A stretch of 64,000 bases of DNA, from NCBI GenBank assembly GCA_964527185.1, contig CAZGOI010000001.1:87166-151165 (forward strand). Reading direction: 5' to 3'. How positions within the stretch are numbered: position 1 is the first letter of the stretch; the number at the start of each line of letters is the position of its first letter. Of the stretch, positions 346 through 25,050 are shown one piece after another. Under the pieces are notes generated by a model. That model had not been told where the DNA came from. It searched no databases and worked only from the letters and a program-made list of their open reading frames with translations. Source of the stretch: an uncultured Candidatus Saccharibacteria bacterium (GTDB taxonomy: Bacteria; Patescibacteriota; Minisyncoccia; Phycocordibacterales; UBA9973). A program made the translations under genes and the position numbers.

Positions 346-536
346 CTAGTTTATTGTGTTGGTAAAAATAATATATTAGTGAGCTTACAAGAAATGGAAG
401 CGTGGAGAGCGCAATATTAAACAGCAAATAGAGAAAATATGTCGATTGAAAAATTAGAACGCGAAGCAGGTTTAAAATAATTGCGAGCGCCGAAAGCCAA
501 AGTAATTCATTTGGAAAATAAAATTTCTTTTGCATG

Positions 537-1055
537 TTACTTTTTTAAATGTTTTGAATATGATTTTAGAAGATCTGACGAGCTTCTGACCTTGCCACCG
601 TGGCCAACATTGAAAACCATTTTTATTCCTAGTTTTTTACAAACCTTAAACTCTGGAATATTATCTGCAAATCTATCTCCGCCATTGGCAAAAATATCTG
701 GTTTGATTCTTGCTAGGTCTTTGGCGACGCTCATATCCTTTGGGTTTTTGGGGTGGCTCGAGATGGCTACTTTATCGACACAAGAAAGCGCTTCGATGAT
801 TTCTTTTCTTTCTTTTTCGTTCATAAATTCTTTACCTTTCTTTTTTCGCAGCCAATTGTCGTTGTTTAAAATAACTATCAGCCTATCACCCAGGGCTTTT
901 GCTTTTTGCATATATCTGATATGTCCGATGTGGATTGGGTCAAAACCACCACTGACGACTACTGTTTTTATATGTCTTTTTAGTTTATTATTATTTTTTT
1001 TAATTTTATTCACGTAAATTAAAATTACGAAAGAGTAGATGTACAAAAAGCGCAA
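537..1055 (-). CDS. cytidylyl/adenylyltransferase-family nucleotidyltransferase (TagD / RfaE-domain-II-like)
   Basis: VVVSGGFDPIHIGHIRYMQKAKALGDRLIVILNND matches the HxGH nucleotidyltransferase motif. The true start may be a GTG near 1013, which would avoid overlap with mscL. Confidence 0.6.
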   Translation of the reverse strand: MRFLYIYSFVILIYVNKIKKNNNKLKRHIKTVVVSGGFDPIHIGHIRYMQKAKALGDRLIVILNNDNWLRKKKGKEFMNEKERKEIIEALSCVDKVAISSHPKNPKDMSVAKDLARIKPDIFANGGDRFADNIPEFKVCKKLGIKMVFNVGHGGKVRSSSDLLKSYSKHLKK

Positions 1056-21482: not shown

Positions 21483-23735
21483 TTATTTGAGTAATTCGTA
21501 TTTAAACAATTTTGGTGTTATATACTTTGCATAGTATATCTTTAATTTTTTCTTTAGATTTTCCAGTTCGCCATTTAATGTTGGATAATCATATTCTATT
21601 TTATTATTCTCGTCTTTTTTGTAAGTGTTTAATTCCATCTCAATTTGATATGGACCATAAGCTAATTTTTTGTCATATTTCTTTGTCTTTTTTGCCTCCT
21701 TTAAAACGCCCTCCCAAATTTTAATCAATTCTTTCTCTTCCGAATTTAATTTATATTTTTCAAGCTGTATACTTGCTAGTGTTTTTGCATCAAAACAAAG
21801 CTCGTTTTTATAAAATCGTTTGTCACTTCCTGTAAAAGAAAGACATTTATTATATCTGGAAAGACAAGTAAAGATAAAACATGATTTCAGGAAATCTTTA
21901 TCTTTTATATATTTGTCACCGCCATCTCCAGTAGTAAAATACACATCTTTTTCATACCAATTTTCTTGTGGGTAAAGTTTTGCAGCGAAAAGTGGCAGTT
22001 TCTCTAGAAAATTATCGGATCGTAAGTAAAAACCACGAGCGTTATAAAGTATTTGTCTTGTTAGGGAAAAATTTGATGGACCAATTAAGAATCCCTTTGC
22101 TGTCATGTAGCCCAGAATGTTTTTGTTGTATATAGATACTCCGTCACATTTTCTATGATTAGCTTCAGTACCGTCACTTTCGCACCAAACACTTGTTTTA
22201 ACATCATCCTTAAATTCTCTTTTTTCGAATAGTGGTAATAAAGTATTTTTAACTTTTTTTACTTCAACATTAATTTTAATATCCACGATTTTGTCGTCCT
22301 TTATGTCTGATGTTTTATTGTTATCAATATCAAAAGCTGGAAAAACAAAATTATCTTGTTCTTTATCTTTATTCTGCCACCAAATTACAGAAATAGAGCT
22401 TGGTGATGCGTGAAAATGTTGACGGTTGGCCAAAAAACCATTTTTAAAATACTTATTCACTAGACCTATACTTTTAAAATATTTAACAGGTGAAAATAGT
22501 ATGTAACTATCCGTTGGTTGTCTAAGGTAATATTTAAGACCAGACCAAATAAATAAATTTGTTATTTCGCGTGCTGAGGATATATTGCTATTATTTAGAC
22601 TTTCAAGTTCCTTTCGCATTTCTTGTGAGACATATTTATTTTTTCTATCAGTCTTTTTCTGCCCTTGCTCATCAGTAAACTCCACAGCAGAGGTATCACT
22701 ATATGGAGGATTTTCGAACAAAATTACCGTGCATTTTGGATTATCAATATATTGCTTAATAATTTCGTTTTCAACAAAATCTTTGCTTAAGGCATCTGCA
22801 TTTGTCACGAAACCTGCTGAAAATTCCACATTGTCTTCCGTTGGTGGAATGATGTGGCGGACACGTCCATTAAAACGCTCTAATAGGACTTTATACTCAT
22901 AATATTCCATTGTGCTCACAATGGTGTGAGATAGTTCTTCTTCTGAAAGTTCAGCCTGTAAGTTTCCAGTTCCAGCGCAACGGTCTAAAATTATATAATC
23001 ATTGCCTTTAGGTACGAGTTTTATTGCTTCGCGGACAAGTTCCACCGCTTTTCTAGCATATGCAGGTGGAGTAAAGAAAGCACCGAGCTCTTTTTTGATT
23101 AGATTATCATTCAATTTGTCCATCAAATACTTAAATTTGATGTTTGTTTTTTCTTTAAACGGTAAAATGTAAGCCTTAAATTTTATGGGTTTGCGAATTT
23201 CTCCGTCGTCTTTATCGTCAAGAAAATCACTTTTCTTTGCTGTTGGATTTTCTCGATAAAATTTTTCTGCCCAACCGACAATACAATCTTCATCTATTTT
23301 TATTTTTGTAAAATTATTCTCTTTGAGTAGTTTTAAAACTTTGTCCGCATCAGACATATTAGAATAATTGTATTCTTTCGGTTGTTTTTTTATCGCGAAC
23401 CCCTCATTATTCTTACTAGCTCCGCCATAATAGATCTGATGAATCTCATCGAAATAATCTCCACTGTCAAAGACATAAACCTTGCCTTGATTTAATGATA
23501 CGAGAAGAATGTTTTTTGGTACTGGGTGACCAGTTATTCTTAATCTTGAAAGATATTTAATAGCTTGAAAAAGTACTTGTTGTGTATTGTTGATACTTAA
23601 TTTAAATTCAAAAATGTTTCCATTATATACACCATCAGTGTTCGCAATAAGAACATTATTCTCATCAAGTTTAATCCCAAAATTTTTGAAAAAATGGAGT
23701 TGACCTTCTCGTTCGGTTGTAAAGTTATTATGCAT
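21483..23735 (-). CDS. Type IIG (MmeI-like) single-polypeptide restriction-modification enzyme: N-terminal PD-(D/E)xK nuclease, gamma-class N6-adenine methyltransferase, C-terminal target-recognition domain
   Basis: N-terminal D-x8-ExK (NTDGVYNGNIFEFKLS). Methyltransferase motifs in gamma order: X LGAFFTPPAYARKAVELV, I ILDRCAGTGNL, IV ILFENPPYSD. This is followed by a ~330-aa C-terminal region. The gene is visibly more AT-rich than its neighbours. Confidence 0.6.
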   Translation of the reverse strand: MHNNFTTEREGQLHFFKNFGIKLDENNVLIANTDGVYNGNIFEFKLSINNTQQVLFQAIKYLSRLRITGHPVPKNILLVSLNQGKVYVFDSGDYFDEIHQIYYGGASKNNEGFAIKKQPKEYNYSNMSDADKVLKLLKENNFTKIKIDEDCIVGWAEKFYRENPTAKKSDFLDDKDDGEIRKPIKFKAYILPFKEKTNIKFKYLMDKLNDNLIKKELGAFFTPPAYARKAVELVREAIKLVPKGNDYIILDRCAGTGNLQAELSEEELSHTIVSTMEYYEYKVLLERFNGRVRHIIPPTEDNVEFSAGFVTNADALSKDFVENEIIKQYIDNPKCTVILFENPPYSDTSAVEFTDEQGQKKTDRKNKYVSQEMRKELESLNNSNISSAREITNLFIWSGLKYYLRQPTDSYILFSPVKYFKSIGLVNKYFKNGFLANRQHFHASPSSISVIWWQNKDKEQDNFVFPAFDIDNNKTSDIKDDKIVDIKINVEVKKVKNTLLPLFEKREFKDDVKTSVWCESDGTEANHRKCDGVSIYNKNILGYMTAKGFLIGPSNFSLTRQILYNARGFYLRSDNFLEKLPLFAAKLYPQENWYEKDVYFTTGDGGDKYIKDKDFLKSCFIFTCLSRYNKCLSFTGSDKRFYKNELCFDAKTLASIQLEKYKLNSEEKELIKIWEGVLKEAKKTKKYDKKLAYGPYQIEMELNTYKKDENNKIEYDYPTLNGELENLKKKLKIYYAKYITPKLFKYELLK

Positions 23736-23779
23736 ATTTAAATACTGTCATATTATTATATTTTTTCCAAATTTAGAAC

Positions 23780-23853
23780 TGGTGGACCCACGGGGAATCG
23801 CACCCCGGACTCGTCCATGCCATGGACGCGTGTTACTACTATACTATGGGCCC
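23780..23853 (-). tRNA. atypical tRNA-Ala-like gene (anticodon GGC, G3:U70, encoded CCA) with a degenerate D-arm
   Basis: The reverse complement GGGCCCAUAGUAUAGUAGUAACACGCGUCCAUGGCAUGGACGAGUCCGGGGUGCGAUUCCCCGUGGGUCCACCA has a perfect 7-bp acceptor stem with G3:U70, an anticodon stem-loop (AUGGCAU), and a canonical T-arm plus CCA. The D-region lacks G18G19 and a proper D-stem. It could be a functional minimal tRNA, a pseudogene, or a remnant of an integration site. Confidence 0.5.
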
Positions 23854-24039
23854 AGAAGGCATATTATTTGTCTCGTATGAATCTCGATTACTGCCATGGG
23901 TACATGTCATCACGAATAATTTCTCGCCGTCGCTCGAAAATTTCGCGATCCCGGCTCGTGGTTTTGCGCACTCGCAAAACATCACTCCGCCCCGGGCAAG
24001 TGAACAAAAAAGATAAACTTTCATCTTTTTTGTTCCTTG

Positions 24040-24112
24040 TCCGCTCGGCAGGAATCGAACCTGCGACCATCTCCTTAAAAGGGAGCTGCTCTACCGACTG
24101 AGCTACGAGCGG
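24040..24112 (-). tRNA. tRNA-Lys (anticodon TTT)
   Basis: The reverse complement CCGCUCGUAGCUCAGUCGGUAGAGCAGCUCCCUUUUAAGGAGAUGGUCGCAGGUUCGAUUCCUGCCGAGCGGA has anticodon loop CUUUUAA and a D-arm typical of tRNA-Lys. Confidence 0.8.
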
Positions 24113-24340
24113 ATTACACAAAAGTACCATATTCTAAGGATAAAATCAATTTATCCACACGATGTTTTGAAAAAAAATTTCAGACGATATATAATGTACG
24201 TAAGTTTCGTTTTGTTAACTTCTATCTGCACCCAAAGATATTGGGAAATAAAAATTGAGGAAGTATTTTAACAATCATAGTTGTTTCAGTCGCATCTTTT
24301 TTATTATAGGGTGCGCGTGTTCTTTATCTAAAGGCTAGAA

Positions 24341-24408: not shown

Positions 24409-25050
24409 TTATTTGTTTAAATTACTTAAAATAAACTGCTCGAGCCCAATCGTAAAATCAAGCTCGCCCAAGTGGGCATCGTGATAGAGCGAGACTATTT
24501 TTTTAGATTGGTTTTTAAGCTCGGCCTCGGTAAAGTTCTTGCTGCCTGCTATTAGCATATTTTTTATCTTCCAGAAAAGCATACCAGATATAGCCTCGGG
24601 CTCGGCTCCAGATTCTACGGCTTCTAGATAAAGCACCCAAGTGCCAATCTTGTCGCGGTTGCCAAAAGAATTTGCAATGGCAAAGGTGTTTGGTTTTGGC
24701 GCGGTGATGATTTTCTTTTCTTCAAATTTTTCAATGGTTGCGAGTTTGGTGTACTTTTTTTCTGTGGCGGCCAAGAGTTTGTCTTCGAGGAAGGTAAAAA
24801 TAGTTTCAGAGTTTTTAAGAGTTGCGAGCTCGTCTTTAGAGAAATCAATTTCTGCTTCCTTAAAAGCGCCGTCGATGATTGCGATTGATTTTTCACCAAA
24901 GAGATTTTCATCTTGGGCAAGCGACATGATCGCAGAACTTGAAACATCGCTTGCAAAAAGTCGCGTAACATTGCGCCCCTCTGCTAGTTTGTCGAGGTAA
25001 GCCTTTCTTTTTTTAAAATCGTTGCCAGAGAGAATGTATATCATATCCAA
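24409..25050 (-). CDS. holA: short DNA polymerase III delta subunit-like protein (HolA-like)
   Basis: N-terminal MIYILSGNDFKKRKAYLDKL and C-terminal GMLFWKIKNMLIA..SLYHDAHLGELDF resemble HolA N- and C-terminal regions. At 213 aa it is shorter than the canonical protein. Confidence 0.5.
   Translation of the reverse strand: MDMIYILSGNDFKKRKAYLDKLAEGRNVTRLFASDVSSSAIMSLAQDENLFGEKSIAIIDGAFKEAEIDFSKDELATLKNSETIFTFLEDKLLAATEKKYTKLATIEKFEEKKIITAPKPNTFAIANSFGNRDKIGTWVLYLEAVESGAEPEAISGMLFWKIKNMLIAGSKNFTEAELKNQSKKIVSLYHDAHLGELDFTIGLEQFILSNLNK

Follow-up and report, generated by a model that had tools for sequence, protein, structure and literature searches.

The locus described here raises two questions: whether an aberrant tRNA-Ala(GGC) gene on a bacterial chromosome is a working tRNA or the relic of one, and what lies in the GC-rich spacer that separates it from the neighboring tRNA-Lys(UUU) gene. 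Both genes reside on the minus strand of a 64-kb stretch of DNA (the window), which we analyzed together with 8-kb loci of other genomes (labels L005–L153). The window encodes RecG, PolA, TsaE, a two-component system, and PilM, which identifies it as part of a bacterial chromosome. The nearest relatives of its tRNAs and proteins are found in metagenome-assembled genomes of Patescibacteria (Paceibacterota), and we assign the window to a Patescibacteria bacterium (candidate phyla radiation (CPR), Paceibacteria-like). A preliminary description, made from the letters of the DNA without database searches, offered as explanations for the tRNA-Ala-like element a pseudogene or attachment-site remnant, a minimal or armless tRNA, or an unrecognized small RNA in the spacer. 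Our analysis leads to a different view of the gene and upholds the last suggestion for the spacer. We estimate at about 75% the probability that tRNA-Ala(GGC) is a functional elongator with an alternative elbow pair and an ordinary role in decoding. The spacer contains a 95-nt structured motif that is probably a repeated, tRNA-linked RNA element.

Both ARAGORN and Rfam recognized the 74-nt tRNA-Ala(GGC) gene with G3:U70 and an encoded CCA, as the preliminary description had proposed. The gene spans positions 23780–23853 on the minus strand and consists of a 71-nt body followed by the encoded CCA (23780–23782). It scores 51.1 bits against RF00005, for which the gathering score is 29 (E = 5e-8 over 64 kb; model positions 1–71 covered), which is the lowest score among the seven tRNA genes that ARAGORN found in the window. 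At this score, a chance match is excluded. The same seven, and nothing else, reached the Rfam gathering score. An encoded CCA had been noted as unusual for this window, which proved correct: five of the other six tRNA genes lack it, the exception being Ser. In the cmscan alignment, the acceptor stem pairs GGGCCCA with UGGGUCC, includes G3:U70, and is followed by A73 and the encoded CCA. The anticodon arm (CGUCC-AUGGCAU-GGACG) has a 7-nt loop with U33, a purine at position 37, and A32/U38; the variable loop is the 4-nt AGUC.

The same alignment revises what had been said of the remaining two arms. The D-arm was called vestigial and unable to form a normal stem; cmscan places three of four pairs in GUAU/ACAC (G10-C25, U11-A24, and U13-A22, with A12:C23 mismatched) around a 7-nt D-loop, AGUAGUA. 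The claim that G18G19 is missing is half right, since position 18 is indeed A but G19 is kept. Conversely, the T-arm (CGGGG-UGCGAUU-CCCCG), which had been described as canonical, has G55 in place of U55 in its T-loop UGCGAUU, a substitution that the first reading missed. Positions U54, C56, A58, U8, A14, G15, and C48 are standard. All four arms are therefore present in the cmscan alignment, the D-arm and T-arm included, and a minimal or armless tRNA of the mitochondrial type was rejected. The two tRNA finders thus assign the gene a normal tRNA-Ala identity, while its elbow stays non-standard.

Few features of tRNAs are as conserved as G18, U55 (as pseudouridine, Ψ55), and the contact between them, and formation of Ψ55 by enzymes of the TruB/Pus10 type is regarded as nearly universal. 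The elbow set G18, G19, U55, and C56 is near-universal in tRNAs, not strictly defining. The window tRNA-Ala has A18, G19, G55, and C56 at these positions, and the combination of A18 with G55 is its most unusual feature. Because position 55 is a G, the tRNA cannot carry Ψ55. Comparison with the E. coli tRNA-Ala(GGC) encoded by alaW and alaX sets this departure in context. The two tRNAs share G3:U70, A73, the GGC anticodon, and the loop AUGGCAU with A32/U38 (PMC7293025); both adopt a cloverleaf with 7/4/5/5 stems, and the window gene lies above the RF00005 threshold. They differ in that E. coli has G18 and U55(Ψ) where the window gene has A18 and G55. The window gene also has the 7-nt D-loop, the 4-nt variable loop, a non-Watson-Crick 12:23, and a body of 71 nt compared with 73 in E. 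coli.

Is the unusual elbow a sign of decay? In an alignment of 18 distinct Patescibacteria orthologues, pairing is complete (100% of cells) in the acceptor, anticodon, and T stems, against 29–52% in slid controls. Nine stem pairs show changes on both sides, and U70 is invariant. The 12:23 position is non-standard in 17 of the 18 orthologues, which indicates that the mismatch is a conserved feature and not a product of decay. In another species (L074), the body is identical to that of the window tRNA-Ala. These findings, together with the intact four arms and G3:U70, are difficult to reconcile with the proposal that the element is a decaying pseudogene, or an attachment-site (att) remnant left when one or more AT-rich genes integrated next to tRNA-Lys. 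Such an event would fit the position of the gene: the segment after tRNA-Lys differs in relatives, three of which (L151–L153) have SpoU, Fpg, and RuvA there and no tRNA-Ala. It would also fit the AT-rich character of the DNA around the adjacent 750-aa open reading frame (ORF) (GC 0.33–0.38 across 21–24 kb), the low rank of the tRNA-Ala Rfam score, and the observation that a Logan metagenome assembly of the same organism breaks at tRNA-Lys. An att scar should be accompanied by traces that we did not detect; the window contains no second copy or direct repeat of the tRNA-Ala 3′ end at three or fewer mismatches, and the flanking ORFs match no recombinase or integrase family in Pfam, PADLOC, NCBIfam, or PDB sequences. 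Because of the conservation, the missing 3′-end repeat, and the missing recombinase, we rule out the pseudogene and att-scar explanations, which we consider highly improbable. It follows for annotation that tRNA-Ala genes with A18 and G55 should not be flagged as pseudogenes.

The variant extends well beyond the window. A pattern scan of 185,579 species (one genome each) yielded at least 119 loci. The pattern fixed only GGG at positions 1–3, U8 A9 G10, A14, U33, anticodon bases 2–3 (GC), A37, and G53-UGCGAUU-C61; the D-loop beyond A14 was left free, as was U70. At least 117 of the matches fold as tRNA-Ala (18–21 of 21 stem pairs), and three are chance matches. Among the matches listed, the sources are Patescibacteria, DPANN archaea (Micr-, Woese-, Nano-, Pace-, and Iainarchaeota), Labilithrix and other Myxococcota, and a few Planctomycetota and others. 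The listed matches, with the window included, comprise 118 G55 tRNA-Ala genes, whose anticodons are CGC (59), GGC (42), and UGC (17). In 105 of these 118 listed genes, the D-loop is 7 nt long with A at the fourth and G at the fifth position; AGUAGUA occurs in 64, AGCAGCA in 13, AACAGGA in 9, and other types in the rest, and a canonical GG D-loop was found in one only (L076). Since the D-loop was unconstrained, its A18 type in 105 of 118 genes indicates that G55 goes along with A18.

Other tRNAs point in the same direction. In the Patescibacteria loci, all 23 of 23 non-Ala tRNAs are standard (GG, U55) and tRNA-Ala(UGC) is mostly canonical; in these lineages, the variant is specific to tRNA-Ala. 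The compact GGC and CGC tRNA-Ala genes of Patescibacteria occur in three 18:55 states, namely A:G, G:C (T-loop UCCGAUU), and G:U. Non-Ala tRNAs from all loci, which were not selected by the pattern, divide into AG with G55 (95), GG with U55 (236), GG with G55 (10), and AG with U55 (1); this classing of D-loops is crude, and the non-Ala G55 tRNAs come mostly from a few related arrays and do not represent independent events. Positions 18 and 55 thus change together in these comparisons.

Several observations made in these loci concern the range of elbow states. The state with C55 (UCCGAUU) and a normal G18G19 was seen in compact Patescibacteria tRNA-Ala genes at L029 298–369, L050 4255–4327, and L074 3390–3463, and further at L077 107–178, L092 5346–5417, and L026 478–549; which anticodon (GGC or CGC) has which elbow state varies by lineage. 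The gene with the canonical GG D-loop (L076 5720–5793; Paceibacteria JBBQRF010000003.1) joins a 5′ half like that of a standard tRNA-Ala to a G55-like 3′ half, has two broken acceptor pairs, and may be a recombinant or decaying copy. A tRNA-Cys(GCA) in L009 (2828–2901; Nanoarchaeia JBAZFG010000006.1) has the T-loop UGCGAAU, with G55, and no GG in its D-loop, which indicates that the variant is not strictly limited to tRNA-Ala in DPANN archaea. In some Micrarchaeota (L007, L024, L032, L085, and others), G55 tRNA-Ala genes share the whole compact bacterial design, including the D-arm GUAU-AGUAGUA-AAAC/AAAU, the 12:23 mismatch, and the 4-nt variable loop AGUC. A design common to DPANN archaea and Patescibacteria suggests cross-domain transfer or striking convergence.

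Large tRNA arrays form a separate setting for the variant. In Planctomycetota (L037 1–4610; JBFWYD010000012.1), an array of about 30 tRNAs covers most amino acids; nearly all are G55 (UGCGA/UGCAA), with A18 G19 in their D-loops (CAGCA, UAGUA). Large arrays are also present in L023, L028, L005, L047, L053, L062, and L118 (Labilithrix/Myxococcota), where G55 genes are mixed with canonical genes carrying U55 and G18G19. The Planctomycetota and Myxococcota arrays look like whole alternative tRNA sets with a modified elbow. ORFs flanking the G55 arrays in L023 and L037 matched no Pfam family. A phage origin of the variant was considered and rejected; blastn against phage records matched the generic tRNA-Lys part only, and the G55 tRNA-Ala pattern was present in seven viral contigs only. 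The G55 variant is not primarily viral. Searches of the literature for A18/G55 tRNA-Ala, for 18–55 covariation, and for oddities of CPR tRNAs found no description, which is not proof that none has been published.

How would such a tRNA be used? Judging from its sequence, tRNA-Ala(GGC) would be charged by alanyl-tRNA synthetase (AlaRS) through G3:U70 and A73 and would decode GCC and GCU on the ribosome. It would belong to a compact tRNA-Ala lineage characterized by a 71-nt body, a 7-nt D-loop, a 4-nt variable loop, and the conserved 12:23 mismatch. At the elbow, A18 with G55 would substitute for the G18-Ψ55 contact, and the L-shape should persist with G19:C56, U54-A58, U8-A14, and G15-C48 all kept. 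GCC accounts for 299 of 1182 alanine codons (25%) and GCU for 30% in 48 window ORFs. Loci with multiple tRNA-Ala genes contain one gene per anticodon, never two alike, and the GGC gene, the CGC gene, or both are of the G55 form; in other Patescibacteria, G55 tRNA-Ala(GGC) sits in a tRNA-Ala/Val cluster. In addition, A32 and U38 are invariant in the 18 orthologues. The A32/U38 pair is required for accurate decoding by E. coli tRNA-Ala(GGC) (PMC7293025).

The principal rival to a decoding role was suggested by analogy to Staphylococcus. Among bacterial tRNAs without G18 and U55, those studied best are tRNA-Gly species of Staphylococcus that are barred from translation (PMC4574755, PMC13443448). 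By this model, the A18/G55 tRNA-Ala would be a non-ribosomal alanine donor, charged by AlaRS but withheld from EF-Tu and the ribosome and handed to a tRNA-dependent transferase, such as one for peptidoglycan cross-bridges or alanyl-phosphatidylglycerol. The two share several features: the staphylococcal non-proteogenic tRNA-Gly species (NP1–NP3, donors for pentaglycine bridges) lack G18, G19, and U55, and one has a 3-bp D-stem (PMC4574755; PMC13443448), while the window tRNA-Ala lacks G18 and U55 and has a D-stem of three pairs. Other features differ. The staphylococcal species also lack C56 along with G19 (PMC4574755), whereas the window tRNA-Ala keeps G19:C56. They have a shortened anticodon loop, no strong EF-Tu determinants, and an anticodon that duplicates that of a proteogenic species (PMC4574755, PMC13443448). 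The window tRNA-Ala keeps the AUGGCAU loop with its decoding-tuning A32/U38 pair (PMC7293025), unchanged in all 18 orthologues, and fills its own anticodon slot. In the clusters seen, the G55 form takes the only GGC or CGC slot and duplicates no anticodon, although a canonical tRNA-Ala(UGC) adjoins it in many relatives and could in principle read all GCN codons. In the T-stem, G51:C63 does not vary, and 17 of the 18 orthologues have G-C or C-G at 50:64. All three alanine anticodons occur in the G55 form in DPANN archaea. No Fem/MurM-type gene or aminoacyl-lipid synthase was found among the 20 of about 48 window ORFs scanned with Pfam. Together with the share of GCC among alanine codons, these observations make the donor role unlikely in our view.

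Several points nevertheless weigh against the functional elongator, in addition to the staphylococcal precedent and the composition of the non-Ala tRNA counts mentioned above. The T-loop and several other positions were set by the search pattern, and their invariance in the alignments is uninformative; likewise, the scan measures how widespread the variant is and not the fraction of lineages that carry it. tRNA-Ala(UGC) alone can read all four GCN codons in some reduced genomes. Finally, the window covers 64 kb, and a second, canonical tRNA-Ala(GGC) may be encoded elsewhere in the genome.

A18 with G55 represents a natural, conserved, and coordinated replacement of G18-Ψ55, seen in the tRNA-Ala of two groups of ultra-small symbionts and in whole tRNA arrays of two other phyla. 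The variant offers a ready-made test of what the 18–55 contact and Ψ55 contribute to tRNAs. It also raises the question of whether proteins that read the elbow have co-evolved with the variant tRNAs or whether these tRNAs escape them.

We now turn to the spacer, which is 185–186 nt in length. The preliminary description had called it GC-richer than its surroundings, and the values are 44.6% for the spacer compared with 39.0% for the window and 54% for a structured core. The spacer folds with a minimum free energy of −59.4 kcal/mol (z = −4.1 versus shuffles; RNAfold), and chance is excluded here as well. The absence of a convincing ORF was also borne out: a 61-aa ORF (23839–24024, minus strand) is not conserved, and in the L078 homologue its frame is broken and reads ATG TTT TGC TAG, which led us to discard a coding spacer. 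Positions 23899–23993 match short stretches beside tRNA-Ala genes in L078, L026, and L029, and these first four sequences yielded a two-hairpin consensus with 14 compensatory pairs. The resulting 95-nt motif (23899–23993, minus strand), captured in covariance models R1 and R2, comprises a short closing helix and two hairpins designated A and B. Hairpin A (GUG-AUG-UUUUGCG-AGUG-CGCAAAA-C-CAC; 23958–23985, minus strand), which emerged from the RNAalifold consensus and pair counts, includes the UUUUGCG-AGUG-CGCAAAA hairpin that had been pointed out earlier. Hairpin B (23909–23951, minus strand), defined by pair counts, is a bulged long helix (AUCGCGAA..UUCGUGAU) with the conserved cap GCGACGGC. 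In cmsearch, the window motif scored 92.1 bits with R1 and 85.9 bits with R2.

Searches with R1 and R2 over about 1 Mb of loci revealed nine strong copies of the motif, located in the window, L026, L029, L077 (two), L078 (two), L108, and L140, as well as weak copies in L108, L111, and others. In the alignment of the nine strong copies, pairing holds in 95.2% of cells (38–51% in slid controls), and both partners have changed in 25 of the 31 pairs. Changes on both sides affect 9 of 11 pairs in hairpin A (helix 2) and 12 of 15 pairs in hairpin B (helix 3). A G:U pair present in seven of the nine copies fits folding on the strand of the tRNAs. All copies have tRNA genes next to them and share the strand of any tRNA that they directly adjoin. 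A terminator-like hairpin often comes immediately before the copy, and in L078 and L026 the motif is flanked by one on each side. The motif was absent from most of the approximately 45 Patescibacteria loci searched, and a degenerate pattern run against metagenome contigs gave 23 matches, only one of which is a real copy (L140).

No known RNA family accounts for the motif. The Rfam gathering scan of the window returned tRNAs only, and scans by E-value of positions 23600–24300 and of L077 1–1300 gave no suggestive match over the spacer or the motif. The sole Rfam entry inside the spacer or the motif, Plastid-psbA-2 over the hairpin, is at chance level (15.3 bits versus 55.8; E = 8.1). The ykkC, ZTP, c-di-GMP-I, hammerhead, box C/D K-turn, SRP, 6S, and tmRNA families were considered and lack support in the Rfam scans; for the hammerhead and K-turn, the registers do not fit the motif either. 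We found no description of the spacer motif in the searchable literature, which does not prove that it is unpublished. The suggestion of an unrecognized small RNA in the spacer is thus supported by a covarying 95-nt motif without an Rfam match, further copies of which adjoin tRNA genes in relatives.

The relatives provide a broader context for this motif. In L077, L078, L111, L074, L151, and L152, a complete tRNA is followed by a composite unit. Most units contain a conserved hairpin designated H0 (GAGCAAGCAAA-CUGC-UUUGCUUGCGU). A 5′ arm is the reverse complement of the T-loop and the 3′ strand of the T-stem of the adjacent tRNA; a core follows that is either the 95-nt motif or other sequence, and a 3′ arm duplicates the 3′ end of the tRNA from the T-loop to the discriminator. 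The 5′ arm follows whichever tRNA adjoins it, be it Ala-GGC, Ala-CGC, Ala-UGC, Pro, or Lys. Of 100 tRNAs, 8 have a downstream match to the 5′ arm at 10 or more of 11 positions; among mismatched controls, the figure is 5 of 932. When folded, the unit L077b forms a three-way junction that resembles tRNA-Ala and includes G3:U70 (−68 kcal/mol; z = −6.4). Units are arranged in tandem in some loci and their presence varies between related genomes. An orthologous Lys-linked unit common to L151 and L152 indicates that units persist through time. The neighbors of motif copies are ordinary metabolic genes (G6PD, PGI, and an oxidoreductase) or genes of no known family, and no integrase, reverse transcriptase, or transposase was found beside the copies.

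The window copy is a bare form that lacks H0. A duplicate of the tRNA-Lys 3′ end in the window spacer was sought and rejected, as local alignment was no better than that of shuffles. A tentative trace of the 5′ arm was found at 23884–23894 (minus strand), where GCAGUAAUCGA matches the reverse complement of the tRNA-Lys T-loop and T-stem 3′ strand at 10 of 11 positions; the presumed 3′ arm that follows shows no significant similarity to the tRNA-Lys 3′ end. GCAGUAAUCGA may represent what is left, in degenerate form, of the inverted-repeat arm that relatives possess.

These units resemble two known kinds of element in part. Integrative elements leave partial tRNA duplications (attL/attR) and have non-autonomous derivatives such as cis-mobilizable elements (CIMEs) and repeats of the miniature inverted-repeat transposable element (MITE) type. 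The units in the six relatives likewise close with a second copy of the tRNA 3′ end, follow one another in tandem, and differ from genome to genome. They differ from att-type elements in that they are only about 100–250 nt in length, have no recombinase nearby, and carry a covarying RNA fold and a 5′ arm complementary to the T-arm; moreover, the window copy lacks the tRNA 3′-end duplicate. The second resemblance is to tmRNA and other tRNA-like structures, since L077b joins an acceptor stem (G3:U70, A73) with helices that are not those of a tRNA. However, L077b has neither a T-arm hairpin nor a tag reading frame, ARAGORN calls no tmRNA, Rfam tmRNA_permuted reaches only 18–22 bits against a threshold of 47, and most units lack the 5′ strand of the acceptor.

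Partial tRNA duplications were also observed in other settings. In L077 (509–605), tRNA-Pro(CGG) is followed about 55 nt on by a second complete T-arm and acceptor 3′ strand, and then by a terminator and an H0/motif unit built on tRNA-Pro sequences. In L037 (about 400–1020, minus strand), tRNA-Arg(ACG) is accompanied by four further copies of its 3′ part, AGUGCGAGUCUUGCCGGGGGUAUC, spaced about 110–140 nt apart with identical GC-rich filler in between, which makes up a tandem array of tRNA 3′ fragments. In L047 (4691–4890; Polyangiaceae JAWKRH010000020.1), the 3′ end of tRNA-Ala(CGC) recurs as a 27-nt direct repeat (UGCGAUUCCCCGUCGCUCCACCCAUGG), and the copies flank roughly 100 nt of inserted GC-rich DNA immediately ahead of the following tRNA.

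What role might the motif play? Its transcription and function, like the use of the tRNA itself, are predicted from comparative data. The spacer module would be co-transcribed with the tRNAs and would most likely spread or persist as a semi-selfish repeat beside tRNA genes rather than serve as a housekeeping RNA. Two points count against this reading: the nine-copy alignment was fitted to the covariance model, and the minus strand of the spacer yielded no promoter-like site. The missing promoter also argues against an independent small RNA gene that acts in trans, as a regulator or by binding a protein, and happens to lie among tRNA genes. Such a gene is possible, though we lean against it. 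The position of the motif between two terminator-like hairpins in L078 and L026 is what one would expect of a separate small gene, and the strong conservation of its structure, the strand-specific G:U pair, and the GC-rich core in an AT-rich genome are all consistent with it. A separate gene is less easily squared with the presence of at least two copies each in L077, L078, L108, and L140, with modular combinations that include H0 and tRNA-derived inverted repeats, and with the absence of the motif from most of the Patescibacteria loci searched and from the syntenic site of three relatives.

The constant association with tRNA genes, on the same strand as any directly adjoining tRNA, could alternatively point to a cis-acting processing, stability, or insulator element of polycistronic tRNA transcripts, one example being a minihelix, similar to a tRNA, to which RNase P, RNase Z, or the CCA-adding enzyme would be recruited. 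In its common form, hairpin B ends ..CUGACC-AC, which resembles a tRNA 3′ end; units in L077, L078, and L111 end with a true copy of the 3′ end of the neighboring tRNA, and L077b adopts its tRNA-Ala-like junction. However, the window copy has GUGAUGAC and not the CUGACCAC 3′ end, and most tRNA spacers in the same loci lack the motif, which makes a cis-acting role doubtful. We therefore retain the repeated, tRNA-linked RNA element as the probable identity of the motif. To our knowledge, the non-coding RNA of Patescibacteria is almost unexplored, and the spacer RNA adds to it an unnamed structured RNA family and an odd class of tRNA-linked elements.

On a more speculative reading, A18/G55 may be a second general elbow design that marks a functionally separate class of tRNAs; separately, the spacer RNA may belong to an undescribed, tRNA-linked family in which a flanking helix matches the T-arm of the adjacent tRNA, a match that suggests targeting of tRNA genes guided by sequence. 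We offer this reading tentatively and think it rather unlikely as a whole. If it were true, the variant would be used for tRNA-Ala in CPR bacteria and DPANN archaea and for whole alternative tRNA sets in the arrays of Myxococcota and Planctomycetota. Lacking Ψ55, A18/G55 tRNAs might then be misread by elbow-binding factors, among them TruB, T-boxes, the specificity domain of RNase P, the C-terminal domain of AlaRS, and tRNA-targeting nucleases.

The surroundings of the locus were compared with those of three relatives (L151–L153). All three contain a conserved block, TsaE-(acyltransferase)-PolA-PEMT-holA-like-tRNA-Lys, which is followed by SpoU, Fpg, and RuvA; neither the motif nor tRNA-Ala was found at the site after tRNA-Lys, and the 750-aa ORF has no counterpart there. 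In the window, the motif, tRNA-Ala(GGC), and the 750-aa ORF thus lie at a point of rearrangement after tRNA-Lys. The 750-aa ORF (21483–23735, minus strand) is AT-rich, lies directly downstream of tRNA-Ala, and may have been acquired laterally; Pfam, PADLOC, NCBIfam, and PDB sequences contain no match to it. The preliminary description took this region for an integrated restriction-modification islet. A synteny breakpoint after tRNA-Lys agrees with that view, but the ORF matches no integrase, restriction-modification, or defense family, and its proposed restriction-modification nature found no family support in the four collections searched. Separately, a gene for a DpnI-family restriction endonuclease is located in the variable segment beside tRNA-Lys in L153 (6082–6513), which indicates that the neighborhood of tRNA-Lys collects foreign genes in this lineage.

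The AU-rich hairpin between the motif and tRNA-Lys, GAACAAAAAAGAU-GAAAGU-UUAUCUUUUUUGUUC (about 17 bp; 23998–24038, minus strand; RNAfold), occupies the place where relatives have a tRNA terminator hairpin (L151, L140, L078, and L026). It was not called in a consensus terminator scan, in keeping with too few G-C pairs in its stem. tRNA-Lys(UUU) itself (24039–24112, minus strand; ARAGORN) scores 71.6 bits against Rfam RF00005 (Rfam span 24040–24112) and is canonical, with the D-loop AGUCGGUA, which includes G18G19, the T-loop UUCGAUU, and no encoded CCA. Upstream of it lies the holA-like gene (DNA polymerase III delta; 24409–25050, minus strand), which is supported by a weak NCBIfam match to TIGR01128 below the cut-off; the position of tRNA-Lys after this gene is the same in L151–L153. 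Over about 40 nt upstream of tRNA-Lys (UUGAUUUUAUC.UUAGAAUAUGGUACUUUUGUGUAA), the window (24113–24160) and L151 (6650–6700) have almost the same sequence; the proteins of this relative are only about 57% identical to those of the window. This conserved block at 24113–24160 is probably the promoter or leader of tRNA-Lys.

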